A stretch of DNA of 63,810 bases, the filler included, from Collodictyon triciliatum (lineage: Eukaryota), in NCBI GenBank assembly GCA_043381765.1. It is 6 parts of 6 records of this genome, joined end to end, with 100 filler letters (N's around TTAATTAATTAA, not from the genome) between each part and the next. Parts side by side here need not be neighbours in the genome. Positions count along the whole stretch, not along the records: positions 48,475 to 60,541 come from JBHJMP010002258.1; 5 more parts are not named here. The stretch is one strand, 5' to 3'. Below, piece after piece: positions 13,585 through 58,489 of this stretch. Made by a program: the position numbers and the translations under genes. How positions within the stretch are numbered: position 1 is the stretch's first letter; each line of letters starts with the position of its first letter. Under the pieces are notes generated by a model. It saw only the letters and a program-made list of their open reading frames with translations. It had not been told where the DNA came from and searched no databases.

Positions 13585-16554
13585 ATGCTCGCCTCCAACC
13601 CAGTCTACTACGCCCAACCCGGCTTTGCTCCTGCCGCCACTTTCCCAGCCAGCGGTTTGGCTGCTCGCACTTCGTATGTGGATTCGGCCCCGATCGCGCT
13701 TCCTGTTTCTGCAGCCCCGTCCCAGACACGCGGATTTGCCCAGCCGCAAAACCAGACTCTGCAGCCGCAGTCGTCGATCCCAGCAAGCATGACTCGCCTG
13801 ACCTCTTTTGCCCCAACCGAGGAGGAGAATCCTGCATACCTTGTCCTCAAGCCTGATCTCCGCACTGTTGTTTCGCCTTTCCGTAGAGTGCTCGTTCCTG
13901 AAACCCCGGTCTCGGAGCTCTTTCTGGAGCTGATCGAGCCCTACCACGAGCAAGTACGAGAAGACATTTATGATGAAGTCTTTTTACTCATAAACATTCG
14001 CATTTGTGTATTTGTTTGTGTATTTGTTTGTGTATTTGTTTGTGTATTATGTATGTTTTATTTATGTTTTATTTATGTTTTATTTATGTTTTATTTATGT
14101 TTTATTTATGTTTTATTTATGTTTTATTTATGTTTTATTTATGTTTTATTTATGTTTTATTTATGTTTTATTTATGTTTTATTTATGTTTTATTTATGTT
14201 TTATTTATGTTTTATTTATGTTTTATTTATGTTTTATTTATGTTTTATTTATGTTTTATTTATGTTTTATTTATGTTTTATTTATGTTTTATTTATGTTT
14301 TATTTATGTTTTATTTATGTTTTATGCATGTTTTATTTATGTTTTATGCATGTTTTATGCATGTTTTATGCATGTTTTATGCATGTTTTATGCATGTTTT
14401 ATGCATGTTTTATGCATGTTTTATGCATGTTTTATGCATGTTTTATGCATGTTTTATGCATGTTTTATGCATGTTTTATGCATGTTTTATGCATGTTTTA
14501 TGCATGTTTTATGCATGTTTTATGCATGTTTTATGCATGTTTTATGCATGTTTTATGCATGTTTTATGCATGTTTTATGCATGTTTTATGCATGTTTTAT
14601 GCATGTTTTATGTATGTTTTATGTATGTTTTATGTATGTTTTATGTATGTTTTATGTATGTTTTATGTATGTTTTATGTATCTTTTATGTATCTTTTATG
14701 TATGTTTTATGTATGTTTTATGTATGTTTTATGTATGTTTTATGTATGTTTTATGTATGTTTTATGTATCTTTCTATTCATTATTCACCATCCTGACGGA
14801 GATGAAAGCAATCTTAATGCATCTAAACCCCAACACAATTCACCATCTTCGCACAGAACCAGCAGCCCTAACCATTGCACTATATTCACACACAGCTGGC
14901 CATGGTAGACGCATCAACTGGCCACCAAGTCAAGTACGGACAACTGGCCAGCGGCATCCGCCGTGTTGCTTCCTCCCTCTTCAACCGCGGCGTCCGCCAA
15001 GGCGATGTCATCGCTATCCTTGCGCCAAACATCCCCGAATATCCTGTCGTGGCCCATGCGGCTTGGCTCTATGGCGCAGTTGCCACCACACTCGACCCGG
15101 AGTGGACGGACGACGAACTTCTGGCCCAACTGAGGGACCTCCAAGTCCGCTTTGTCTTCACCATCCCCGCCCAGGCCGACCGCATTTCCGCCCTTTGGTC
15201 CCGTCTCATCGCTGAGCCTGGAAGCTTCCCGCGCGAGTGGGCTAATATTTTTGTCTTTGGCCGTCCAGAAGCCGGCTCTGGGCATACCATGTTCTCAGAC
15301 CTGCTTAAGAGCGAGTCGCTGTTTCCCGACCACACCGTAGACCCGCATAATCAAGTTGCTGCCGTCTTCTACGTCAAGGATGCACAGGGAAGCATCCGCG
15401 GTATGGAGTTTACTCACTACAATCTGACAGCAGCCATCGTGCAGGCCTTGGCTTACGATGACATTAGCTCCCAAGACCATCTCTTTGCTACGATTCCATT
15501 CCACAGCATCGTGGGCCTCAACATTCAGCTGAATGTGGCTCTTGCCCGCGGTGTCACGGTAGTGGTGGTTTCTGGTATTTTGGGAAGCTCTCTTCGCTCT
15601 GTCTTGGACCAGTATCAGATCACCCGTCTCTATGCAAGCAAACTTGATCTGGTCCAGAATGTGCGCTCTGTGTTTGGCTCAGGGCTTTATCTCAAGTGTC
15701 TCGTCTTTGCCGGAGCCGAGGCAGCCTCGAAAGACGTCCAGCAGCTGGAGGATACGCTCGGCATTAATGTCCGCCAGCTCTTCGGTATCTCAGAGTCTAT
15801 TGTGACCCATGCGGTCTTGAAGGGCTCAGCCATCGACCATATTGCTAGCACCGGTGCTCCGGAAGGCTCAATAGGCCAACTTTTACCAAATGTTGAAGCC
15901 CTCGTTCTGGATAACCGCACCGGCTGCCCGTGCCCCGCCAACTTTATTGGAGGTTAAGCATCTATCCTTCTTTTTTTTTTCCGAAGCAAACAAATACTCA
16001 TTTTTCTTTGTATTAAAAAAATGCTTATTTTTCCAGAGAAATGTGTGATAATGGAATAGACATTTTACTAACCAGTTGTCTCTATAGAACTATTGATTCG
16101 TGCGCCGCAATGCTGCTCAGGTGTTTATCATAATTAAATTTATCCATTTCGTGTGAATAATTTGCTTTGAGTCTGCTCTGATATAATCTTGCCGAAGAAA
16201 CAATAAGCAGACGATAGAACCATTTGCATCGTTTTGGATTGAATTTCTCGATTTCAGTAATTCAGCTCTTATGTAATTCATGTTTTATCTGCCTCTAAAT
16301 GTGCAGGATATGTGAAGCCCGAAACAGCACCAAAGGTGGACCCTGATGGCTGGATTCGCACTGGATTGCTTGGTTAGATGTTAATTTATTTATTATTATT
16401 ATTTTAAGGAGAGAAATAAGACAAGGGTGGAGAAATGTATATAGACCTGTCAGTTTGCTTGTCTTAAAAAACAGCATTTTGAACTGACCCAAAATACTTT
16501 AATTCAGGATTCTACGACAAGAAGGGTTTCTTCTATGTACGCAAGGCAAACTAA
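13585..16554 (+). CDS. 4-coumarate-CoA ligase/luciferase-like AMP-binding (ANL) protein with degenerate catalytic motifs; 5 exons
   Basis: Exons 13585-13953 and 14896-15952 plus three short exons (ELLIRAPQCCS / GYVKPETAPKVDPDGWIRTGLL / GFYDKKGFFYVRKAN*). GVRQGDVIAILAPNIPEYPVV, IPFHSIVG and GSIGQLLPNVEA are 4CL-like. Confidence 0.82.
14046..14770 (+). repeat. Intronic 11-bp minisatellite in three variant blocks
   Basis: TTTATGTTTTA units, then TGCATGTTTTA units, then TGTATGTTTTA units, inside intron 13954-14895. Confidence 0.95.
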
Positions 16555-41751: not shown

Positions 41752-43386
41752 TTATTCTACTCTGAAGGTCTGCTGGTTGGATTGAATTTCAAGGACGGCG
41801 TCATACAAAGATGCAACAATAATATTATATGGCCCATCAGTGGCACCAATGGGAGCATTGAAGTTTAATCTTAGCGACATTAGCCCTGACCCGCTACTCT
41901 GGATATCTGTACCGACTATTTCCCCTTCGACCGCATCGAGTACTTTGCGGAGATTGAAGCCGATTAGGAATTCACTGGCAGGTCCTTGGAAGCTGCCTTG
42001 ATAAAATCGTCTAATGGCATCAGCTGCTGCTATTTGAGTTGTACTTTGTTGGGTACCCACACTATGTGTTATTGTAGAGTGGTTAGCATTAACTACAATG
42101 GAACAAGCAGTACCCGCTGTACCTTGAGCTGCACCTGCATTTACTTTTAATAAAGCTTGATTCACTGCCACGGAATTATCAGAAAATGCTATTGGTGGAG
42201 CAGTTACGGCAGGTTGATTAGCACCTGCAATTGCCTGAATGCTATACCCAGTCTCTAAATTCTGTAATTGATTCAAATAATTGCCTACAAAGTTTCGGCC
42301 ATCAAACCCAAACGGCCCGGTGTATTCACTTCACACGTGAGTGAGACCAAGCGCCTTTTGCAACTCCAAGAATGCTTGGGGCGCATTTCCTTCACAGTCC
42401 ATTGGCTGTAAGGGGTAGTAGAATGAGCCGAGTTGAAGTTGGGCATCAACAAGTGTTGGGGGTTTGTGCTTTCTATCTTTGCCAGGAACCATGAAAGTAG
42501 ACTGCTCTCGCTGCTTGAAAAATGCAATAAACACACTATTCAAACTTTTAACTGTATCATTAATATTAAAAACGTGCAATGTTTGTTGACCAGCAGGTAA
42601 GCTGTACATTGATGTCCTCCATGTCTTGTACGGAATTTGCAGGGGAATGCCTCGTTGAATACTTGATTGCAATTGCTGATGATACTCTGGAGCCATACGA
42701 ACAACATCGTAAGTCAAATAACATGAACTAATTTCGTATGTTGCTGTGGTTGGAGGAGCACCAGTAGTATTTAAATTTATTTGACAAGCGTCATTAGCAG
42801 GTGCCAATTCTATTTCAATCTGGAATGCTGAAACTGAATCAATCATAGATGTACTAATGAGACCTGAATAATTGCTAATGCCAGACAATCTAAAAGGAAC
42901 ACAATATTTTCGTGAAGTGGTGAATCCAGCATCGGCTGCTGCACTTGCAACTACAGATTGCATTCTTGTATAATAAGGACCTATACCCAAGACAGCTTGG
43001 CCAACACAATCATTATAATCTTTCGATAAGTAATTCATAAACATTGATTCCAAATAGGCATACCGTTGAATATCCTCTAAAAGGAAACTAGATCCTTTCC
43101 TAATGCGGAGATTTCCAATTACAGATTCAATGCTATTACAAAAAGTTGCGTGATAAGTTCCAGCAGGAGCAGAAACTTTAATTCGTGCTGAAAAATGAAG
43201 CATCAATGTATCCATATCAATCTCCATTCCAGTTTCGGAAGGTATGTTAAACAGTATTCGGTCAATTGACGTCGGTCCAAAGATTGAACCATTAAACGGA
43301 CTGATTCTAGTTGTGTGTCTCGCTAGAACTTTGTCATTGTAGTTTTTCACTCGCATGTACTTTGCTTCAGTAGGAAAATCGGCCAT
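41752..43386 (-). CDS. Major capsid protein (double jelly-roll, PLV type), 544 codons with one in-frame TGA at 42331-42333
   Basis: ORFs 42331-43386 and 41752-42276 share one frame (…GLTHV*SEYTGPFG…). Motifs ISPFNGSIFGP...ILFNIP...IDMDTLMLHF, SIESVIGNLRIRKG...LEDIQRY, QLGSFYYPLQP...AFLELQKALG, FLIGFNL and LYDAVLEI follow the PLV MCP pattern as I recall it. Confidence 0.8.
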
Positions 43387-43438
43387 ACTATTATACAGAA
43401 AATAATTTCAACATACATTGCGTTTAAAATGAATCCGG

Positions 43439-44026: not shown

Positions 44027-44058
44027 ATTATGGCCAAGAAAATTATATAAACTAAAGT

Positions 44059-47000
44059 ATGAGCGGAAAACAACCAACTCGTGAAGAAATTATTAAAATA
44101 TATGAAAAAGAGATGGCAAAAAAAGGATTTGATTTAACAACCTGGAGGGAAATTGGTAGGACACAATTTGGAATAGATACTTCCAGAATGCTTGCTCAAC
44201 GTCAAATTATAGAAGCTATTGCAGTAATTAAAGCAGATAAAGATATAAAAGAACAACAAGAAAAAGCAAAAAAACCTCAAACTACAACACCACGACCTCC
44301 AGCACAATCACCACGACCTACAGCACAATCACCTCTACCACAAGCAGAACCAGAACCAGAAACTGTTGAAATTGTAACAGAAAAAACTTTAAAAAGGTTA
44401 TATGCAAATTTTCCAAGGAAAGAGTTTGAAGATAAATTATATAAAGATTTTAAGCGTAGACTCCCCAAAGACTATAAAGAAGCAGATGCTGTAGATTTTT
44501 ATTTGAAATTACAAAAAGAAAATTATGTTAAAGTGATGGCAGAAAAATTTGCAAAAGCTGCCAAGACAAAAAACGATGTATTAAGATTTTATAAATTTTT
44601 TATTGATACAGCGGCAGGACTTGATGAATATGCCACATATGAACATCCATTAATGCAAGACATAGTAAACCATTCTAATACAACAGGAGTTAATATACAA
44701 AAGTTAGCTGAATTTGCACTTAATGATTATTATGACCAAATGTACAAAGTTACAGAATTTTTACAATTGTTGAAATCTGACAGTGTGGTTGATCAAAGAA
44801 AAGCCAAAAAAATGCAAGATGACGGAGAAGAACCAGGTGAGCCGTATGACTTGGAGGATTATATTGACCAATTGTTTAAAAAATATGTAAATGGATTGGT
44901 TGAAATAAAAGATGTAAAAAATTATCAAACATATTTAGAATGGTTCAAACAGCAACACCAACCGTATATTGTAAATGAATTTTTTTATGGGCAAGACGAA
45001 GAAAATCCAGATTGGAGAAATGAACGAAGCGAAATAAATTATTTACGGCAAGCTTTATTTGAAACTTTTAATCAAAAGAGTGTTGCAGAATATGAAGATT
45101 TGGTTTATAAATATGTTTACAACCCTGATGACACTGTTGACGACGTACTACAAAAATATGCAGATAGATTACTCGTATTGCAACCCGGTGCAGCTGTTAA
45201 TGCTAAATTTACTAAATGGCCAGCAAGTAAACTAGCAGAGACTATAGAAACACGTGAGGAAAAAAGTAGAAACCCATTTAAAGGTAAAGACTTGAATTTT
45301 GTTATCGGTGGACATGATTCTAAAACATTTTATTCTTATGTACCATATACAATAGAAGATACAGATGAACCACTAGGTGTAGCAGATCCAACACCGCAAA
45401 GACAATTAATAATGAGTCCTAAATCTTCAAAGTTTTTCTTTAGAATGCAAAAAGATAAACCTACAGAAGATACACCTACACAAGAAGAGACTGCAACTCC
45501 CATCCCTGAAACCAGAGAACAAAAAAGAGAAAGGATACAAAAAGAATTGCAAGAAAGACAACGGCGTGAATCTACCGCTATTACATCAAATGTTAGAGGA
45601 GCCGAAAATGTTGTAGAAGCAACTAAAAGTATAAGAGATCTTGAAAGAGTATTTGAACGAGAAGAACCTGTAGTTATTGATGATGATGAACCTGTTTTTA
45701 CACCAGATAAATCTATGATTTCTGCTCAATCAGGTGAAGAATCATTTGGCTCTTTTGAATCTGCTTCATCAGCTACATTTCAAAAGCCAACGACGCCCTA
45801 TGCTTTTTCACCAAGTTTGCTAGCTCCAGTGTCTATGTCTGGAGGAGCAGGCCAGCCAGGTAGAAGAACTTCAGTTCCAGCTATAACAACAAAAGCAACT
45901 GATGTATCACAAGCAAAATTTGGTACACCAACAGAAGGCACATTTGATACAAGTCAGCTTATACCAGGTCCCAGAAGCCATCAGGGCGGTACAATAACAC
46001 CAGAAGACCTAAAACCTATTACATTTGCAGATACTCCCGTTCCACAACCTCAGACACAATTAAGCGGTAGATTTGTAACAGACGCACCCGCACCACCTCC
46101 ACCAGACCTAACAAATGAATTGAAAGCGGCTAATGAAAATATTTTACAGTTACAAAGTGAAAAAGAACAATTACTAGAAACATACAAAATATCGGCAGAA
46201 AAAAATAAAAGTCTAAAAAGAGATAATGATAATTTGTCAAAATTATATGAAGGAACTAAGAGAACAAAAGACGGTTTGGAAAAAGAGGTGGAAAAACTAA
46301 AAAGTGTTGAAGTTACTTTAAAAACTAAAGAATCAGAATTGGCAGCACTTCAAGATACATACAGCTCATTAGTAACAGCACAAAAAGCTTCTAAAACTAG
46401 AAATGATAATTTAACTTCTGAAATTGCAGGCTATAAAGAACGAGAAGCAGGATTGATTAGAGCTAATGAAACATTAAAACAAGAATATGCTAGTCTAGAA
46501 GTTAATTACAAACTTTTAGAAAAAAAAAATACAACAGGTGCAGAAAATGTAGAAGCAATTAAAAAAGCTACTGAAACACTCAATGCACAATTAGCAACGG
46601 CAAATTCAAGATTAACTGAATTCGAAAGAAATTCAAGTGTAGTAGTTGCTGAAAGAAATAGACTCAGAGAAGATTTAAAAATTGCACAAGAACAGCTTAC
46701 GGATATAGATAGAGCAAAACAGCAAACAGATAGCCGCAATGTAGATTTAAATGCCCAAAATATTAGATTACAACAAAAAGTTGATGAATTACAATTAACA
46801 ATTCAACAAAATGAGCAAGATATTCAAGCATATAATCAACAAATAACGGAATTAACTGAAACTAACGCAACTGATACAGAACGATATAATGAATTAATTG
46901 AAAATTATATGGTGTTGCTTAAAAAATCTAATGTTGCTATGGCAGATGAACAAGTAGGCACTGAAATTGTAATGCGAGAAATGGGGGTAGGTAGTAGTAT

Positions 47001-48162
47001 TAGGTATGCAACTACTGGAGTAGGCACACCAAAAATTGTAATGCGACAAATGGGTGTAGGTAGTGGTAATGTGTATGCAACTACTAGGAGTCAAAATATA
47101 CAAACTGATAATATACAAACTGAAAATAAAAATATCAGTGATTATATGCAAAGTAACCCAAGTCAAGCAGAAAGTAGTAAATCCAAAAAATATGCTAGAG
47201 TGAGTATAACTAGAGGTGGTGACCCAATGACACCAGGAACAAAGTCTAGGACTCTTGGTGTACTAAAACGGTCCGAAAGATCAAGTGCGCCAGGAGTTTA
47301 TTTAGACCCCGAATTTGATGACCTACCCCGTGACGAAACGGGAGCAGTGCAAGTAACTCAAAATGTTCTAGCCGAATATCCTTCAAGAATGAACTTTGTA
47401 AATTTCGGTGCCATAAATGCTGAGACACAGGCAATAGTTGCACGGCCCGCATTTAACGAAAATCTTAAAACAAACATTGATAGATTTGTAAGTGACTTAA
47501 ATTTTGCTATTGTTAACATTGCTTGTATCAAAAAGAAAAAGAAAGATGCTCAAATTATTCCACCAAATCTAGACCCAGAAAATCCTATTGAAGTTGAGGA
47601 TGACCCTGATGAAATTATTCAACCACAAAGACCTATTTATATAAATGGTGAAGAAGTTTACAGTTACGATAATATTTTAAAACTGCTACAACAATACGAC
47701 ATAAGGTGGGAAGAAATTACAAAAGAACCTGCCCTTGCAAAAAAAATATGTCAGTATGCGTTTGGCACTGCAGATCTCCAATATACAAATTACGATAAAT
47801 TAAATACGAATCTGAAATATGCTATGAAAATTGGAGCTTTCCCATTCAAATACGAGCGCAAGGAAGGCGAAAAGCGCGAAGCCAAACTTCAAAATGTGGC
47901 ATATCTCCCCAATCAAGGAATGGGCCGCGTCGTCAATTCTGACCTCGGCACAATTATTATTCCAGGCCAATCCAAGTATTCCATCAGACGCGAGGGCCTC
48001 AATTACGTCGTCCACGGCGGCGGCCAGAAACGCGCATTCGGGTCTGCCAAGGACGCCCAGTATTTCGTATCCTCCGGTGCATTCGGCCGCAAATCTTACG
48101 GGCCAATTACCGAGCGAATCTTTGGCACACCTATGAAGAATCTTTCACAGGCTATTTATTAA
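44059..48162 (+). CDS. Viral 1367-aa protein with a long central coiled coil; function unknown
   Basis: Uninterrupted 4.1-kb ORF with A/T-biased codons, a heptad-rich region at ~46110-46920 and Pro/Thr-rich linkers. Confidence 0.88.
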   Translation: MSGKQPTREEIIKIYEKEMAKKGFDLTTWREIGRTQFGIDTSRMLAQRQIIEAIAVIKADKDIKEQQEKAKKPQTTTPRPPAQSPRPTAQSPLPQAEPEPETVEIVTEKTLKRLYANFPRKEFEDKLYKDFKRRLPKDYKEADAVDFYLKLQKENYVKVMAEKFAKAAKTKNDVLRFYKFFIDTAAGLDEYATYEHPLMQDIVNHSNTTGVNIQKLAEFALNDYYDQMYKVTEFLQLLKSDSVVDQRKAKKMQDDGEEPGEPYDLEDYIDQLFKKYVNGLVEIKDVKNYQTYLEWFKQQHQPYIVNEFFYGQDEENPDWRNERSEINYLRQALFETFNQKSVAEYEDLVYKYVYNPDDTVDDVLQKYADRLLVLQPGAAVNAKFTKWPASKLAETIETREEKSRNPFKGKDLNFVIGGHDSKTFYSYVPYTIEDTDEPLGVADPTPQRQLIMSPKSSKFFFRMQKDKPTEDTPTQEETATPIPETREQKRERIQKELQERQRRESTAITSNVRGAENVVEATKSIRDLERVFEREEPVVIDDDEPVFTPDKSMISAQSGEESFGSFESASSATFQKPTTPYAFSPSLLAPVSMSGGAGQPGRRTSVPAITTKATDVSQAKFGTPTEGTFDTSQLIPGPRSHQGGTITPEDLKPITFADTPVPQPQTQLSGRFVTDAPAPPPPDLTNELKAANENILQLQSEKEQLLETYKISAEKNKSLKRDNDNLSKLYEGTKRTKDGLEKEVEKLKSVEVTLKTKESELAALQDTYSSLVTAQKASKTRNDNLTSEIAGYKEREAGLIRANETLKQEYASLEVNYKLLEKKNTTGAENVEAIKKATETLNAQLATANSRLTEFERNSSVVVAERNRLREDLKIAQEQLTDIDRAKQQTDSRNVDLNAQNIRLQQKVDELQLTIQQNEQDIQAYNQQITELTETNATDTERYNELIENYMVLLKKSNVAMADEQVGTEIVMREMGVGSSIRYATTGVGTPKIVMRQMGVGSGNVYATTRSQNIQTDNIQTENKNISDYMQSNPSQAESSKSKKYARVSITRGGDPMTPGTKSRTLGVLKRSERSSAPGVYLDPEFDDLPRDETGAVQVTQNVLAEYPSRMNFVNFGAINAETQAIVARPAFNENLKTNIDRFVSDLNFAIVNIACIKKKKKDAQIIPPNLDPENPIEVEDDPDEIIQPQRPIYINGEEVYSYDNILKLLQQYDIRWEEITKEPALAKKICQYAFGTADLQYTNYDKLNTNLKYAMKIGAFPFKYERKEGEKREAKLQNVAYLPNQGMGRVVNSDLGTIIIPGQSKYSIRREGLNYVVHGGGQKRAFGSAKDAQYFVSSGAFGRKSYGPITERIFGTPMKNLSQAIY

Positions 48163-48474: not shown

Positions 48475-48519
48475 TTTTATAAAAAAAAAAAAAAAAAAAA
48501 AAAAACTTTTTTATAACGT

Positions 48520-51500
48520 ACTTCAGTTGGCGGAATAAAAATGAAGACTCGATTTTTCGTGGGGTCTTTGTGGTATTTGGCTTGAGACCTTAAAAAAATG
48601 TTCATTACATACGTTCGTTAGTGCTGCCGAAGGAAAGATTACGAAATGAAGAGAAAAGGGTAAAACATTCTGCCAATTTCATAAAGAATAGTGTAGGTCC
48701 AACAACTTGAAAAAATTAGAAGCGTGAATTGAATAGAAAAATATTGACTTTACATCTGACATAGTGTGGCTGCGTTGCGTTGAGAGTTGTCATTAGGGAC
48801 GTAAGTTGTTCCTATGGAATAAGTAATAATGTCAACTCCAGAGAGAAATGTTGAGGTAGGGCTCATTCTCTGTTAACATAGCTGGCCAGTAATTTTTGAA
48901 TTATCTATGAATTAATAATAATGGGGGAAACCTTGAAGTATATGGCAATAGTCTGCTTTGTTGCCGGGGCTCTTTTCCTTTCCTTTTCTTTTGACTAATA
49001 TTTCATATCGGAGAAAATGTTATAGACTAGGAATCCCGTGAAAAAAAAAACTAGACACTTTTACGTGTTTTCATGACGAGTGAGAATGCTCAAGATTATG
49101 GTTCAATCGGTCGAAACAGGGAGACTAAAATAAAAAACATATAAAAATAAAAATAAAAAGATTATACTAGCCTTGGGATTATCCTCTGGAAACAATGCAC
49201 GAATGGTCTCTGATTTGGAATTTTGCATAGCTTCGATGTAGTCAAAATATAGAGTATCTTTGTTTTTATCAGTAAATCCTTCAATATTGTATGTAACCTA
49301 AAATACGCTGCTGGTTATTAATGAACGTATTTCACTCGCAATACAAACTCCTTTTGAGACCATCCTTGACTAAAGATATCAGCTGCGTATATATCGCGAT
49401 ATGAAAAAATTTTTTTTGTGTAAGTTGATATTGTACAGATCCAGCATAGTGCTTCACGCCGAAAGTCCCGTTATTAACTCGAGGCTTTTCATAGTACGGG
49501 TTCTTTTCATGATTTTTGTGGAACTAAATTGATGTATGAAATAAAAAAAATGCATCAATTCTACTTGGGTCTAATTTCATTTCAAAACCATTCTATACCA
49601 TTTCTTTACATTTTGAATTGGTGATCAATCAAAAGAGTGCATATACATAAAACATGTGAAAATGGTGGAAAGATTAGAAAAGCTACCTTTTCTAACATCA
49701 TTTGGTCCCCTCCTTTCGGGGCCTTGCATATTTCGTCGATTAAAGATACGATTCCCAGAGGTTTCTAATTATATATAAGTGAGGGACATTTTGCGAATGA
49801 GGTTTTAATTTATGGTAAAGTGCGAAAGTCAAGATTGACATCTTTAAAGCAATACCTTCTCTACAAGGTCTATGCAGTCTTGATTATCGACAAAATCGAT
49901 ATTTGACCAGGAAATTTTTTCTTTCATGTATTCCTATGGATGTTTATTTAAAGTAGAATAGTTATACAATGTTGATAAAATTTCGTCTGAATTAAAAAAA
50001 AAGGCGTAGTGTAATTTTGTTATCTTGTGTAAGTAATTCTAATCATATGGAAGACCTCTTGTTCTGTTTTAAATATGAATTGATTGAAATGTTGCTGCAG
50101 CTTTTCATTTGCAAAGTTAATGCAGAGCTGCTCGAATGAATTGTGCTGTTGTATATATGTGATCAGTCAATATGCGAATGAATTTGATATTTATAACGTT
50201 TGTTCTGCTAAATCGAAGTTGGAAAATAAAATGTCCTGCTCTTCTTTTTGGGGATAATACCTTGAATATCTCAAATCCAAAGATATCAAGAACTCCGATC
50301 AGATTCTTTTTCTTTCCTTGACGAATGCTATTGAAAAATATTTTCAAAGAATTTATCTCCATCGTTACAAGCCTTATAAGTAATTTCATGAGAATATATA
50401 TTATAAAGCTACATCACATATTGTGATGTTTTTTTTTCGAGAAAATATTATTGTATAGACCTGTCGTTGATTCTAGAAACAATCCAGTCAAACATTCTTC
50501 CGTATATGGACTTCGCAAAGGCATCTCTCCCTTCAACAGCCTATGACAATTAGATTATGAACCTCCACAAATTTAAAGAAATAAATTAATGCATATTTTC
50601 AGATATTAAAAAAAGTCTACTTCTGTGTGCTTAAGAGGCACAGTAATCACGCTTCCTGCGATAACATTGGTTCTGTTGACCATTGCGTTTGAAAGCAACT
50701 CGACTGTGGTTCCGAATATCGATGCAGCCTTGCTAACCACTAGATTATTTAAATTTTCAATGAATAACATGCCAAGATACACCGTGATTTTTTTTCATTA
50801 TGAAAAAGTACTCTTGCTTTCAAGGATAGCTTCACAATGACATCACATGCAAATTTCAGAAGCCTTGACAATTTCAACGTTTTTGGTGCATAAAACTTTT
50901 CATTAAAAGAATAAACGAGTGTCATTTAATATGATAACCTTCTGGATTTTCAACTGTGCTACTTTCGCCGTCAGCTGACCCTTGAAATTTTATGTTTCCT
51001 ATCATCAAAATTCCAGACAATATACGAAAGATTGCGTCGATTTCATCGTCGCTCATGTTAAGGACTGACAAGGCCATCTAATTGTTACAGCAAAAGAATA
51101 TATTAAGCTAAATAAGTTGGATTTTGCATTTGTGTCATGACACGTCTAAACACACTCAATTACGCTTGCTCTTTACTTTGACTCGATCGAACTCTTCGGC
51201 ATCGTTAATGTGTGGAATTCGCATGCATCCACTTTGATTCAGATAGTGATAATCCTCGGGTGACATAATGCCATACTTTTCTATTTTAATTATACTCGAC
51301 TTAGCTTTCATATGCTATGGGTATTTAATGGCATCCGTGGTACCTCGTTCCTCTGGGGTAGCTCCCAGAGTAATCTGATAGAAAATGTGATAATTTCTCT
51401 CATCTGCTGCTTGGGAGACTATTCGAGACTGCTCATGAACGTTAGTAATCCCGATAAAAAATAATATTAAAAAAAAAAGAGGAAATAGAATCATCAATGA

Positions 51501-53299
51501 CTGAGCAATTCGAATTTCAAAGAAGCTATAAAGTTGCTCAAAATCATTGCAACATCATTTAGAATTAAGTAGAACCTTTTCAAGGAGATCTATAAGAATT
51601 TTTTGTGGTTTAGTCAAAACATCAGTATAATTGAGCTCTTGAATAAAAATAATTAAAAAAATACATGAAAGCCCAGTCATTTTAATGACACTACAAGGTG
51701 AACTATTTTGTCCATTCTCTATTTTGTTTTAAAATTATTATAAAACCACCAGATATTAAGCCATACTTACAATTAATGATGCTTGCACCGCATATTCTAT
51801 TATCCTGATCAAAGTGAATCTCGATGAATTTCCCCTGCGTGGTTTGTTTGTTTGTTTGTTTGTTTGTTTGTTTGTTTGTTTGTTTGTTTGTTTGTTTGTT
51901 TGTTTGTTTGTTTGTTTGTTTGTTTGTTTGTTTGTTTGTTTGCGAAATTAAGGGCAGATGAAACTTCTTTAAACATTATCTGTCCATCATGTTTTACGAC
52001 AGGGTTTTTTCTATTCAAAAGATATTAATTTATATAAAAAATTGCACTACGAACTGCTCATGAATGTTTGGACTTACAAATCGGGATGAATTATCATTTC
52101 TTATTGTTTTTGCATTTCCAAAGGCCTCAAGAACAGGAGACGAGTCGAGAATCTGCTGTTCAACCCATGAATGATGCCCACTGACAGCTGCCAAATACTG
52201 CAAGATAAGCTTGGTCGCCTCCGTCTTGCCTGCACCAGATTCCCCACTGAATTTGATTTTACAATTATCAAACCAATTAGATTAACGATTTTAATTCAGC
52301 ATATATGATTTCTTAGCTGTCAATTTTCGAATACAAAACAACACGATATTCATAAAAGTGTCAATCTGCAAGTTTGACTGATTTAGCAGGGTCGCAGGTG
52401 ATATATTAATTGCGAAAGTACCTGATGATTATGGACTGATCAAGAGAATTATCACACATATTTCTATATGCGTTGTCAGCAATCGCGAATATATGAGGCG
52501 GAAGCGCACCGATTCTTTCGTTTCGATAAGAGTGCATAATTTCGTTTGTGTAGATCGGTAGCGTCTATGTTATTTTGTTTTGAACTAACTTGAAAAAAAG
52601 ATAATGATAGAAAGAGACACCATGCAGAAATAGTGTTTATTTTCGCAGTTGCATTTGACGAGTATCGTTGTTGAATCATGAAAATCTTGGAATTATTATA
52701 GACGCGGACAAAGCTCTACTCAGACGAAAGTAGTAGATTATCACCTGATAAGGATTTACAGATACGAGAATGGCGCCAGTGTACGTGTATATCTTATCGT
52801 TCTCAAATCTATCTCTGATTGTGTGGAGCAACCCTGCCTCATGCAAGTCTCCAAGATGAACCTTTAATATGGAAACGTTTAGGATATTATACATGGACTT
52901 TTTTTTTATAGAGTACAACCGCGGTGGAAATATATTATAAATACACCGATAAAAATCAGCATATGTATTTTCGCATGAGTTTCCTCTCCTTTTTTTTTGA
53001 ACGGAGTGGTCGTGTTAATATACTAAAACCAAAAGAATTGAATGCATAACGAAATAACTTCATCAACCATAATTTATTATGAATGAAAGCAAACCATGTC
53101 GTCTAGTCCTTTCATGCAGGTTGGGTGGACAACTTGGAGAGATGCAAGCTTCCCCTTTTCGACAGTCGTTGTCTGAGTGAAGAGAAACGTTAGTGTGATA
53201 GGTTTCTATAATTTGAATTAAAAAAAAAGATGTGTTCTAATGGAGCGATGATAATAAGCCGTTAAGAAATTATGAGCTCGTCGCACAACTTAAGCGTTC

Positions 53300-53398
<99 letters not shown>

Positions 53399-53743
53399 GA
53401 AAGTAAAGTGTAAAGGATAATAAGACATACCTTTCCTGAGGGCGACGTCAAGACTGCGTTCTCTCCTTCAAACTCATCCAGTTTGTAAGGAAACCAAGAC
53501 TCATCTTCTGTAGTAATCCAAAAATATGTTCCCTATTGACGCGTACAGGATATTATTCGTCATGTATTCTATTTGTCAACTCCTTTGTGCAGTAAAAAAA
53601 AAAAAAAAAAAGAAACAATCATACTAGAAGACAGAATTATGTATTATCCACTTCCTATGAAAATAAAACAAATGTATATATAACCGCGAAGGAAAGTATC
53701 CACGGAGCCAGAAAAGTGCACCCACCAACTCTGGGAGCGCCAT
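48520..53743 (-). CDS. Myosin motor domain, myosin-VII/MyTH4-FERM-like; intron-rich, 3' part missing
   Basis: [72 protein letters not shown] (52080-52248), [24 protein letters not shown] and [14 protein letters not shown]. Start exon MALPEL at 53743 is tentative. Confidence 0.93.
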
Positions 53744-54278
53744 CGTCCGTCTTTTCTCCCTCCTTTTTCCTGCCAAAGAAGACAAAGCCAATAGCAAAAC
53801 AAAGAATCAATCAGGGCCCCCAAACAAGCGGATAAGCGACACAGGAGCTCAAACACGCGTCGATTAGTTCCGAGAGACAGAGAGAGCGAGCGACTAATCG
53901 AAGGAAGCAGCTTGCCTTCCCATTGGGCACCGATCAAGCGCCCAGCCAAGCAGTCTTTATATACACAAAACGCCCAAACATCCGCTTTGACACATGATAA
54001 CCGCAAAGCTGTGAAGCTTACTTTGTCACCTGTCTCGCCTCGAAATGACATGAAACCCTGGCCAGTGCACCAGGGTATTGGTGTCACATCTATTTCCTTT
54101 TTAAATGATTCCGAGATGGAATCTATTTAAGGTATGATAACCTGAAGCTCTGTCAAAACAGGCGTCACAAACACAATCTTGCGCGTGGATCTGTGGAGGC
54201 GGAAACGGAGCTCGCGTGGGGGTTTCCTTGGTTGGCGCTTTTCTTCAACTCACAAGAGCTTTTCGCCAAGTGGCAACC

Positions 54279-57200
54279 ATGTTATGGGAGGACGACAGTG
54301 ACGATTTTCTTGGGGAGGACTTTTCATCGAATCCGCACAATGAGCCAGACATCTACGCGAGTTTGCAGACGAGCTCGGATGAGGACGATGTGGCTGGGTC
54401 GGCGGGTTCCTCAGAGTTGGGGCAGGCTTCGCATCCGCGACTCGTGAAGAGATATCCGGATGAAAAGATCATGCGTACTCTTTCGTATATTCTCAGGCAT
54501 GGCTCTCTGCGGCATTCCATAGCTATAGACGAAGCTGGTCTGTGATGTGGGCTCTTTTTACCATTTGTTTTTTTTTATTACTGTTTTTTATTACTGTTTT
54601 TTATTACTGTTTTTTATTACTGTTTTTTATTACTGTTTTTTATTGCTGTTTTTTTATTACTGTTTTTTATTACTGTTTTTTTATTACTGTTTTTTATTAC
54701 TGTTTTTTTATTACTGTTTTTTTATTACTGTTTTTTTATTACTGTTTTTTTATTATTGTTTTTTTATTACTGTTTTTTTATTACTGTTTTTTTATTACTG
54801 TTTTTATTACTGTTTTTATTACTGTTTTTTTATTACTGTTTTTTATTACTGTTTTTTATTACTGTTTTTTATTACTGTTTTTTTATTGCTGTTTTTTATT
54901 ACTGTTTTTTTATTACTGTTTTTTATTACTGTTTTTTTATTACTGTTTTTTTATTACTGTTTTTTTATTACTGTTTTTTTATTACTGTTTTTTTATTACT
55001 GTTTTTTTATTACTGTTTTTTTATTACTTTTTTACTGCTTTTTTTTTTATTGCTGTAATGATTTTCCTGGCAATAAGTACACTAAAAAATATTTTTACTT
55101 GGTGACCGCCTTTTCTTATTCTAATTAATTGTTTGTCTAAAAAAAAAGGCTTCATGAAAATGACTGATGTTGCAGCTTTTGTGGAGACCAGACACCCAGA
55201 TGTTGAGCGGAAGCAAATCGAAAGGGTGGCAAAATCATCAGTGTCTTTGGAACAGGGTCTGATGTTGTTTGAAAGTAAGCTCATTGATGGTGAAAAGTAC
55301 ATTCGTGCGAGATTTGGGCTCACAGAGAAAGTAAAAAAAATTGCGCCGATATATGTTTCGTTTTTTCTTTTTTACTCTTTTGCGTTTTTTTCTACTTTTT
55401 TTTGCTCAATTTATGCAAAATTTTATGTCTAACTTGTTGCGTAACAATTAATTGTTAATCAAATTAGTATGTCTTTTCCGCTAGGATAGCTCTCCTCCAA
55501 TCAAAATAAAGCTCATGTTAACTAATTACCTATTTAAAAAGGGAGATACTGTGAAGAAATTATCAAAAGTGCGCAGCTTGCTTGGGATATGTTTGGACTA
55601 CATTTCGTCGCATATGTCCCTTTTTCGGGGATACGATGTGCCTAATTTTCTTCAACCTGCAATGACCGAAGTCTGATGTGAATCAATTATAAGGCGATTT
55701 AACATGCTTCTATTTCAAAAACGATATTAAATATCAATATGGATATATATGGATAATAGCCCCATTTTTCCTTCTCATGATATGAACACTTTTTTACTTC
55801 GTAAAGAAAAAAGGAAATTGATGCATGAAATAACTGCAAAAATGAAATACACGAAGGTTCTGATGCAAACGCTCAAATCCAAGAATTTTTTGACAAATAA
55901 AGTTCTGAAAGAACATTTCATAACACCTGAGGTTTAGTTTTGATTCCTTCGACCATATTCGTTCTGTGAGCTATCTAAGTTTGCTTTTAAGGACCTCCAT
56001 AATTTTTGAAATGGATTCAAAAATAATTTTAGATTGTTTCCTTTGATTTCTCCGGTACGTTTGTCACAGACTCGGCTCTTCGAGATATTGGGAAAACTTG
56101 TGTTTCTGTTCGAAAACTTGTCCTTGCTAAGCAGGTCTGAAATATTACTCATTATTACTATTTTTAAAAAAAATGATAAACTAGAAATCCATCGTCATTT
56201 TTTTCGGAAATTGCATGATTTTATCACTTAACAACGCTCTCCGTTGCTGTTTTCAATGGGAAAAAAAAAAGGCATCCATCACGGATAATACTCTGTCTCT
56301 GGCTGTAAAGTGGTACTTTATTATTTTAGATTGAATGAAATCTTTCCTGGCCACTTAATCTTACTATTATTATGTCATATTTAATACTTTATTGCCCCGG
56401 TATTGTGTGTTTCGATTAATTCTGTAGATGAATATTTATCGACAGCATTACTATTTTAATTTGGTTTTATTTATATTTATTTATATTATTTTTTATTTAT
56501 TTTTATTTATTTTTATTTATTTTTATTTATTTTTATTTATTTTTATTTATTTTTATTTATTTTTATTTATTTTTATATATTTAAATAGCATGGAAAATCT
56601 ACATACGCTTATATTATCCGAGTGCTCCAATATCACCTCAAAAGGCATTTTGAGCTCCAGTAAAAAATGGCTCAATATGACCCATTTGAACTTATCTAAG
56701 TGAATTTTTAAAATGATGTGTCGTCTCACCAAATATGACTCACTATATTTTATTCTGATGATTATATCATAATAATTTCCTGATGTATCTGTATTATTAG
56801 ATGCTCCCGAATAGGGGATAGTGGGATTATTCAAATAGCAAATGTGTGCAAGAATCTGGAAAGCTTAGATGTTTCCTTTCTTCATCAGGTATCTACAATA
56901 CTTTGTATGTTTTTAGAAAAAAAATTATATGAATGCATGTTAAAATTAACCATTTGTAATGTGTAATCATCAGGTCACAGACAAAGGCTTGGTTGCAATC
57001 GCTGCTATGTGCACCAATATCACATCTCTCAACTGCATCCAAGTCCCGCTCGTATCTGACACATTTTTGCAAACTGTTTCATCGAATCTTCACCGCTTAG
57101 AAAAACTTCTCCTCAAAATGAATTCGAATGTGATTCTTGTTTTGTTTCCTAATTTTTGATTCGATTATTTATTATATGAGTATTTAATACTGTTGGAACT

Positions 57201-57890
57201 TATCTTCTCATATACCATATATCTATAGATAACTTCCTTTGAAAATATAGGTGACTGATGATGGTGTTACGATGGTTCTCCAAAGCTGTCCACGTCTCCG
57301 TTTTCTTAGTGTGGCTCAGTGTGATAAAGTAACCACGGCATCGGTGGCCTACTTGCAAAATGTAACTCCTATAAACGCTATTAAAATATTTACAGNNNNN
57401 NNNNNNNNNNNNNNNNNNNNNNNNNNNNNNNNNNNNNNNNNNNNNNNNNNNNNNNNNNNNNNNNNNNNNNNNNNNNNNNNNNNNNNNNNNNNNNNNNNNN
57501 NNNNNNNNNNNNNNNNNNNNNNNNNNNNNNNNNNNNNNNNNNNNNNNNNNNNNNNNNNNNNNNNNNNNNNNNNNNNNNNNNNNNNNNNNNNNNNNNNNNN
57601 NNNNNNNNNNNNNNNNNNNNNNNNNNNNNNNNNNNNNNNNNNNNNNNNNNNNNNNNNNNNNNNNNNNNNNNNNNNNNNNNNNNNNNNNNNNNNNNNNNNN
57701 NNNNNNNNNNNNNNNNNNNNNNNNNNNNNNNNNNNNNNNNNNNNNNNNNNNNNNNNNNNNNNNNNNNNNNNNNNNNNNNNNNNNNNNNNNNNNNNNNNNN
57801 NNNNNNNNNNNNNNNNNNNNNNNNNNNNNNNNNNNNNNNNNNNNNNNNNNNNNNNNNNNNCTCGAAATTATCGCAGAAACCATCGAATAA
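54279..57890 (+). CDS. Fusion of a degenerate Tpt1/KptA N-terminal lobe, a BC-box-like motif and Cys-containing (RNI/Rad7/FBXL-type) LRRs; multi-exon, spans a gap
   Basis: Exon 54279-54537 has RTLSYILRHGSLRHSIAIDEAG; exon 55149-55330 has FMKMTDV...YIRARFGLT; exon from 55485 has VRSLLGICLDYISSH. Later exons read LILSECSNITSKGI, VTDKGLVAIAAMCTNITSLN and VTDDGVTMVLQSCPRLRFLSVAQCDKVT. Probable end LEIIAETIE* at 57890. Confidence 0.72.
54565..55050 (+). repeat. Intronic (TTATTACTGTTTT)n array
   Basis: Visible 12-14-bp units with a variable T tract inside intron 54538-55148. Confidence 0.92.
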
Positions 57891-58489
57891 ATCATCTCAT
57901 TTCATTCATGTGGATTTTTGGGCTTTGTGCAATATAATTAAATGAACTTTATATGAAGCACTTCTGCAAAATAGGCCGGACTTAATGCGTTTCCACCAAC
58001 ATCTCGATTTCTGTGCGACCGCCTAACTATACTGTCTTTTCATTCTTTTTTCTTTCTTTCGTTGTGTAGTAGGCCTCTGATTTTTCCTGGTATTGCTTAT
58101 CCAAGCCCTTCTTAGTCCGCTTTGTCTTCGAGGAAACATCATTCCTGACGTTTGATGCCCACTGTCACCCGCGACGATTGGTAATTTCGGTGCGTCTTTC
58201 GGGGGATTTCCAGGAAGTTGTCCGCAGAGCGCCCGGAACAAAACAAGAAACCAGGAAACCCTCTCACTATTTTAACATATGTTTTCGCCCCAGGCCATTT
58301 ATTACGGCCTGTTCTCTTTCCATGCTCTTCCGCTTCCCTGGAGTTTTTTTTCTTTTTTTTCTTTCTTTTTTTGCATTTTTTTTTTAAAAGCAAGATATAT
58401 TTTCAGAAAACAAAAACAGCATCAAAGCCGCCAACAAAAGTACACCAACTGGGAAACTCATTTGTATCGTGCATATACCAGTCCAGGAC

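Follow-up and report, generated by a model that had tools for sequence, protein, structure and literature searches.

Does the RNA-binding half of the phosphotransferase Tpt1/KptA occur, separated from its catalytic partner, on a protein made of leucine-rich repeats (LRRs), and would such a protein act in ubiquitination? This question is raised by a locus of Collodictyon triciliatum (GenBank assembly GCA_043381765.1), situated in a window of 63,810 nucleotides (nt), that is, the whole stretch of DNA that was analysed, made of six parts of six records joined end to end with 100 filler letters between each part and the next. The locus belongs to the part coming from JBHJMP010002258.1 (positions 48,475 to 60,541 of the window, along which all coordinates are counted). 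The original prediction, drawn from the sequence alone, placed between positions 54279 and 57890 a Tpt1/KptA RNA lobe fused to an Elongin BC-box and Rad7-like LRRs, and proposed it as an E3 ubiquitin ligase adaptor sensing nucleic-acid ends. In the reading favoured here, a single plus-strand gene of at least ten exons would encode a protein of at least 437 amino acids (aa) composed of an acidic tail, a catalytically dead RNA lobe, a linker, and at least eight LRRs. This combination of domains is judged real and probably new, the protein appearing as an LRR receptor to which an accessory domain, hitherto unreported, has been added.

Homology of the N-terminal domain to the Tpt1/KptA RNA lobe

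According to PMC6333775, Tpt1 has two lobes and originated when a winged helix of a specialised kind was fused to an NAD+ (nicotinamide adenine dinucleotide) lobe; the RNA lobe, or N lobe, is a winged helix comprising three helices and a sheet of three strands. As judged from profile comparisons, residues 56-148 of the window protein are very probably a homologue of this RNA lobe. The strings quoted in the original prediction are all found where it had placed them, namely LSYILRHG in exon 1, IDEAGFM across the junction 54537^55149, IRARFGL in exon 2, and VRSLLGICLDYI in exon 3.

The starting point of the profile was the E. coli kptA (NC_000913), whose 120 best relatives were all at least 59% identical; a narrow, KptA-only profile of 98 full-length sequences scored 12.6-18.3 bits, the lower value being that of the spliced protein, with 70% in hhalign, and was superseded by a more diverse one. 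For this purpose, the Pfam family PF01885 was sought in 5, 201, and 301 prokaryotic genomes, and was present in 5, 38, and 21 of them, respectively. Of the resulting 56 open reading frames (ORFs) matching PF01885, in 56 loci (L083-L138), seven partial ones were dropped; the other 49, in which the N lobe is covered, make up the diverse N-lobe profile together with 5 of the 98 KptA sequences (54 sequences, 89 positions).

Applied to the 437-aa model, the hidden Markov model (HMM) of this profile reaches 33.9 bits (E 1.5e-12, with a single target), and residues 55-150 give 37.0 bits; none of 5000 shuffles of the latter residues reached the N-lobe score, the best of them attaining 8.9 bits. With the same alignment, hhalign returns a probability of 95.6% (P 1.3e-8) over 86 columns, which represent the entire lobe. 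Both the N-lobe pattern announced at the N-terminus and the expected profile match over residues ~55-150 are thereby borne out. Besides, among the 1771 six-frame ORFs of the window, the N-lobe profile ranks first the ORF that contains exon 1 (16.5 bits, E 7e-4) and second the one that contains exon 2 (8.1 bits, E 0.31). Since the alignment is ungapped through the exon 1/2 junction and the spliced score exceeds that of either ORF alone, the splicing of these two exons is further supported. When residues 55-150 were run by phmmer in the reciprocal direction, on 3402 sequences of which about 3250 were decoy ORFs and the others came from the Tpt1 sets, 13 Tpt1 sequences and no decoy were returned at E<=0.01, self ORFs aside.

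Pfam was searched exon by exon, with nine exon pieces rather than with the spliced protein, and six of the nine pieces were without any family. In exon 1 alone, aa 61-85 match positions 3-27 of the family PTS_2-RNA (12.6 bits, E 0.14). Two points weigh against the homology at this level: the score of exon 1 stays under the gathering cut-off of 26, and exon 2 alone matches no Pfam family. One could further suppose that the likeness to Tpt1 reflects convergence of a generic winged helix instead of common descent, the RNA lobe being a common fold that structurally comes closest to the winged helix of La (PMC6333775), and the wing half aligning only with gaps. Such convergence is nevertheless extremely improbable, as the 33.9-37 bits include the LSxxLRH signature, the D..G[WF] turn, and IRA, PTS_2-RNA is the sole Pfam family for exon 1 at E<=10, and the reciprocal search returns Tpt1 proteins only. 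An AlphaFold2 model of exon 2 alone (predicted local distance difference test score 59.3, predicted template modelling score 0.31) is made of helices throughout and is too poor for fold comparison.

Residues retained and lost in the lobe

In PhoTpt1, helix 1 uses Ser6, Lys7, Tyr11, Arg14, and His15 to hold the RNA at the junction base, at the flanking riboses, and at both the 3'-PO4 and the 2'-PO4 (PMC12170183); wing residues Lys60 and Arg62, with Tyr74, clamp the 2'-PO4, and Arg115 of the NAD+ lobe completes an R-H-R-R tetrad (PMC12170183; PMC6333775). The hhalign alignment places Met65, Arg66, and Tyr70 of the window protein at Ser6, Lys7, and Tyr11, respectively, and the invariant R-H of the tetrad, Arg14-His15, is kept as Arg73-His74. 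Also retained are the D..G-aromatic turn, the wing Phe127, and Ile138-Arg139-Ala140.

In the original prediction, the arginine of KxRF and the QGHS motif were said to be lost and the NAD-binding lobe to be missing. All three statements hold, and the first even extends to the lysine: since none of the 12 positions before Phe127 carries a Lys or an Arg, whichever alignment is used, both basic residues of KxRF are gone, the Arg among them being the second arginine of the tetrad, and the QGHS position reads FGLT. As regards the NAD+ lobe, the model scores 0.5 bits with the C-lobe HMM, and the best of the 1771 window ORFs scores 6.1 bits (E=1). The protein cannot be a phosphotransferase, and its lobe is best described as a catalytically dead, stand-alone RNA lobe. 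Moreover, because both wing residues of the 2'-PO4 clamp are lost, no 2'-phosphate specificity is expected, which argues against a specific 2'-phosphate reader and renders RNA binding itself uncertain, to the detriment of the function proposed below. The RNA/phosphate-binding module first suggested is retained as a non-catalytic RNA-lobe homologue, of which a specificity for 2'-phosphate is not expected.

Gene structure

On the plus strand, from 54279 to 57361, ten exons can be spliced into one open frame of 1311 nt, i.e., 437 codons without stop, all introns being GT..AG and the exon phases consistent throughout (Table 1). With a codon table trained on six Pfam-supported ORFs from the same window, the frame of the model is the best of six in seven of the ten exons (one of them a tie), most clearly in exons 1-3: exon 1 scores +8.0 in this frame versus -10 to -34 in the other five, and exon 2 scores +10.6. 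Exon 3 also holds an alternative in-frame acceptor at 55542, whose use would remove 19 aa.

Table 1. Features of the plus-strand gene model and of the overlapping transcript, in coordinates of the window.
Feature	Position	Strand	Description
Tpt1/KptA RNA-lobe-like winged-helix domain	54444-55330	+	aa 56-148; split by intron 1; supported by HMM, hhalign, and phmmer
Exon 1	54279-54537	+	start codon ATG at 54279; aa 1-55 form an acidic N-terminal tail, followed by the Tpt1-like lobe's helix 1, which bears LSxxLRH (Arg73-His74); ends in phase 1, donor GTCTGT
Intron 1	54538-55148	+	611 nt; microsatellite with 14-nt unit TTTTTTTATTACTG, ~34 copies, 54570-55033
Exon 2	55149-55330	+	remainder of the Tpt1-like RNA lobe, aa 87-147; donor GTAAAA
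Exon 3	55485-55670	+	helical linker; BC-box-like and Cul2-box-like motifs
BC-box-like motif SLLGICLDYI	55575-55604	+	aa 178-187; consensus from PMC4878042
Cul2-box-like motif VPNFLQPAM	55635-55661	+	aa 198-206; 11 residues after the BC-box-like motif; consensus from PMC4878042
Exon 4	55857-55931	+	25 aa; second portion of the pre-LRR helical region
Exons 5-7	56033-56134, 56272-56312, 56589-56699	+	Cys-containing LRRs
Exons 8-10	56801-56888, 56974-57129, 57251-57361	+	Cys-containing LRRs
Spliced antisense transcript	55130-57353	-	X1/X2 contigs; 7 introns
Assembly gap	57397-57860		464 N; conceals the gene end and C-terminus
Nine open codons and TAA	57861-57890	+	directly 3' of the 464-N gap

Do the lobe and the LRRs belong together? 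The critical interval is intron 2, a 154-nt stretch in phase 0 whose donor is GTAAAA, whose body is rich in pyrimidines, and whose acceptor is TAG. Given that the spacers to the neighbouring genes measure here ~600-700 nt, this interval is too short for an intergenic spacer, and its length, its good donor and acceptor, and its phase-0 fit make a single gene the likelier reading. Two genes or cistrons could be proposed instead, the first coding for a lobe-only protein (exons 1-2 to a stop at 55433) and the second for an LRR protein starting at a Met of exon 3. Indeed, exon 2 read past its donor stays open for 34 further codons up to that stop, an in-frame Met occurs within exon 3, and the junction 55330^55485 is not seen in the RNA contigs presented below. 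The two units would, however, be separated by only ~85 nt, the stretch between exons 2 and 3 has all the intron features just listed, and AATAAA is absent from it; this division of the locus is unlikely. Based on the gene model, it is quite likely that exons 1-2 and the LRR exons are parts of a single gene.

Some features of the locus speak against the model as drawn. The frame of the model is slightly outscored by an antisense frame in three exons (5, 7, and 10), and the C-terminus is concealed by the assembly gap. As for the gene end, which had been set at the stop 57888-57890, the codons and the TAA are indeed present, and their tie to the frame is unprovable across the 464 N. T-rich microsatellites fill intron 1 and likewise intron 6, the latter at 56466-56582 with a 10-nt unit in ~12 copies.

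Transcript evidence

None of the runs recorded as RNA contains the stretch. RNA contigs were obtained from X1 and X2, two small runs of one study, which were labelled 'RNA?' by guess and contain 0.24 and 0.22 of the stretch's words, respectively; a further run, X16, gave no aligned contig. Their mapping covered 55060-57390, the exon 1/2 junction lying outside this range and the repeat of intron 1 preventing alignment. These contigs reveal a spliced antisense transcript with joints at 55258>55530, 55654>55925, 56136>56228, 56302>56607, 56695>56780, 56900>56983, and 57147>57270. The skipped parts end in CT..AC in six cases out of seven and in CT..TC in the remaining one, and are read as minus-strand GT..AG introns; they roughly overlie the sense introns and never share a border with them. 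Once joined, the 1000 nt of this RNA have stops in all six frames and no long ORF, and the antisense RNA is apparently non-coding. It may belong, as a long leader, to the myosin gene next to it on the minus strand, or else be a long non-coding RNA in antisense. A loose 27-nt end of an X1 contig, beyond 57353, is absent from the window.

With regard to the sense gene, no plus-strand splice junction was seen in the X1/X2 contigs over 55060-57390, the other contigs being unspliced, and exon 4 is without cover in them, which are two further points to its disadvantage. For the RNA check of a single transcript that accompanied the original prediction, these contigs offer spliced antisense RNA only. 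One might then consider that the plus-strand frame is silent or decaying and that the spliced antisense RNA is the only product, all seven joints observed being minus-strand introns. Against this stand the 437 codons that remain open over nine introns in AT-rich DNA, and the number of informative runs, two from one study; furthermore, since contigs show presence rather than absence, the missing plus-strand junctions do not refute the gene. A silent or decaying frame is accordingly regarded as very unlikely, and the coding gene of Table 1 is kept for what follows.

In addition, five 151-nt DNA contigs from a run labelled metagenome (X3) align, unspliced and with 0-4 differences, at 55163-55494 and 56588-56868. 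As the match is that close, the source organism or a near-identical strain occurs in the X3 sample.

LRR body, linker, and candidate docking motifs

From residue ~241 onwards, eight 26-residue Cys-containing LRRs can be read in the translation of exons 5-10, as had been anticipated from the sequence. The only matches of exon 9 to PDB are FBXL17 (E 0.0012), FBXL2 (E 0.02), and FBXL3 (E 1), from four distinct sequences, and Pfam LRR_6 is found under its cut-off on exons 7 and 8 (E 0.012 and 0.12). By repeat pattern and PDB matches, the LRR body is assigned to the FBXL-type Cys LRR class.

The lobe and the LRRs are connected by a helical linker of ~70 residues that contains the two candidate docking motifs of Table 1. 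Such an arrangement is known from other LRR proteins: ZYG11B and PRAME carry a VHL box ahead of their LRRs (PMC4878042; bioRxiv 10.1101/2024.06.24.600508), ZYG11B having L18 and C22 in its VHL box and F50, P51, and V54 in its Cul2 box, directly before the LRRs (bioRxiv 10.1101/2024.06.24.600508), and Rad7 is a SOCS-box (L168, C172) LRR protein acting with Elongin C and Cul3 (PMC4551923). The BC box that had been predicted fits the consensus and is properly placed before the LRRs. Its specificity is poor: when the protein was shuffled 20000 times, 9% of the shuffles contained the strict BC pattern and 3.2% the combined BC and Cul2 pattern, the latter also giving five matches among 1144 window ORFs, this site included. 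These shuffle frequencies tell against the docking role, as does the fact that neither the F-box (PF00646/PF12937) nor another docking profile was detected at E<=10 when exons 3 and 4 were scanned separately. The BC-box reading of the linker is, on its motifs, weakly supported.

These results also bear on a simpler explanation, in which the fused protein is real and has no link to cullin-RING ligases, the LRRs being a plain scaffold of the RNI or AMN1 kind and the BC-box-like string the first amphipathic helix. The failure of any F-box, SOCS, or other docking profile to appear in the linker scans agrees with it, as do the lack of any match at E<=10 between exon 3 and the PDB chains and the recurrence of the strict BC pattern in shuffles and inside an LRR (aa 277). 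Conversely, the nearest solved LRRs all belong to F-box proteins, and the BC and Cul2 motifs are placed as in ZYG11B and PRAME. A plain scaffold is, all in all, rather unlikely.

Proposed function

Considering the sequence features as a whole, we lean slightly towards a dead Tpt1 RNA lobe, a linker, and FBXL-type LRRs acting together in a cullin-RING ligase, as its substrate receptor or as an adaptor; for the cullin-RING role taken by itself, the chances appear about even. In this proposal, the protein would dock through its pre-LRR helices, with Elongin BC slightly favoured over Skp1 as a partner, and the arc of LRRs would bind a protein target. Helix 1 of the former Tpt1 lobe (Arg66, Tyr70, Arg73, His74) may tether the complex to a phosphorylated ligand, be it RNA or some other, binding of a backbone or of a terminal phosphate being expected of the lobe at best. 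A more precise version, in which the RNA lobe would be a reader recruiting the ligase to RNAs whose break or splice junction is phosphorylated (3'-, 2'-, or 5'-phosphate), is quite improbable. If it were true, proteins stuck on unfinished intermediates of tRNA splicing or RNA repair would be ubiquitinated, and RNA ends would guide an E3 receptor of a kind not described so far.

Independently of this last scenario, a eukaryotic protein with the RNA lobe only would show that this lobe is reusable as a separate module. Joined to LRRs resembling those of FBXL proteins or Rad7, it would moreover provide a candidate, open to testing, for a link between RNA and ubiquitination. Residues 56-148 also constitute a small, defined domain suited to assays with phosphorylated RNA ends.

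Relatives and literature

Relatives were searched with single exons of 52-62 aa, by which only close orthologues are detectable. At this sensitivity, exons 2, 3, and 9 have no relative in any of the collections searched, which leaves conservation unsupported and counts against the proposal. More precisely, the word-index search with exons 2 and 3 found no longer protein, the best scores of these two exons in the ESM Atlas were 0.84 and 0.85, with no family, exons 2 and 9 had no match in metagenome contigs, and exon 1 had none in PDB. With HMMER, exon 2 gave three matches at E<=0.001 against 1.84 billion representatives. Two of them, P0122 (PAS/HAMP/MCP) and P0123 (NB-ARC/TPR), align through helical repeats, and they are taken as spurious, as is the third, P0121 (5807 aa, 13 stretches); in PDB, exon 2 matched designed repeat proteins only, which were set aside. 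Because neither relatives nor a sense transcript have been found, the case may prove to be a lineage-specific oddity.

In the literature, supplementary files being outside the search, none of the papers listed was seen to describe an LRR protein that carries the RNA lobe of Tpt1. The fission yeast Tpt1-Yae1 fusion is reported to retain the whole enzyme (PMC12810181). A bacterial ORF of 116 aa consisting of the N lobe only (L139:1132-1482, plus strand) was dropped as a precedent: it covers Pfam positions 2-85 with 36.2 bits, continues into a Pro/Ser/Arg-rich tail that looks out of frame, and is probably a frame-shifted Tpt1 gene. During the same sampling, PF01885 matches were observed within open frames of 769-2852 aa in one bacterial phylum (e.g., G182:C138, G157:C1:2344077-2344541, and G187:C9), which suggests that Tpt1 domains are fused to large proteins there.

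Surroundings of the gene in the window

The window is eukaryotic chromosomal DNA, with large ORFs that contain kinase, DnaJ, NHL, IF-2, and BTB domains, and an Rfam scan of it found no family. Just upstream of the gene, myosin head exons occupy 52676-53532 on the minus strand, as identified from the translation only; one ORF of this region has an N-terminal SH3-like stretch, and a 32-copy ATA/AAT repeat (53300-53396) lies within or beside it. Just downstream, exons of a Rab-like small GTPase are found at 58388-59419 on the plus strand, with the G1 motif GDxxxGKT/S and DxAGQ read in translation, and are broken by a second N gap and by poly-T/GT repeats at ~59020-59230. Elsewhere, several ORFs match no Pfam family at E<=0.001, namely 44056-48159 (plus strand, 1368 aa, the longest in the window), 33851-35362 (plus strand, 504 aa), 42334-43407 (minus strand, 358 aa), and 13977-15212 (plus strand, 412 aa).

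Comparison with known systems

With Tpt1/KptA (PF01885), the window protein has in common the LSxxLRH helix 1, the D..G-aromatic turn, the wing Phe, and the Ile-Arg-Ala stretch, and it differs by being devoid of the NAD+ (ADP-ribosyltransferase, ART) lobe, of the KxRF basic residues, and of QGHS, LRRs being fused in their place. FBXL17, FBXL2, and FBXL3 (PDB 8uah, 6o60, and 4i6j, respectively) have the same 26-residue Cys LRRs with the pattern xTDxGL..ia..C..L, whereas the window protein possesses an additional Tpt1-like domain at the N-terminus and no F-box profile match ahead of the LRRs.

As regards the docking region, the likeness to ZYG11B/ZER1, PRAME, and LRR-1 (Cul2) and to the yeast Rad7 (Elc1-Cul3) is at the level of motifs and consists of an L-x3-C helix and a phi-P-x-x-phi string before the LRRs. 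The L-x3-C helix is likened to L168/C172 of Rad7 and to L18/C22 of ZYG11B, although the spacing between the BC motif and the Pro is 16 residues in the window protein versus 29 in ZYG11B. Beyond these motifs, the whole pre-LRR region may resemble those of Rad7 and ZYG11.

A parallel for the domain order is provided by KDM2A, KDM2B, and FBXL19, which combine a nucleic-acid-binding CxxC domain with an F-box and LRRs. As in the arrangement proposed here, a nucleic-acid module precedes a docking helix and FBXL-type LRRs, but it is a DNA-binding zinc finger in these proteins and would be the lobe of an RNA enzyme in the window protein. Finally, the nearest case in the literature is the ART-like (NAD-side) domain of LRRC9, in which an ART-type part is likewise reused beside LRRs (PMC7955679): LRRC9 has kept the NAD+-binding half, whereas the window protein would have kept the RNA-binding one.

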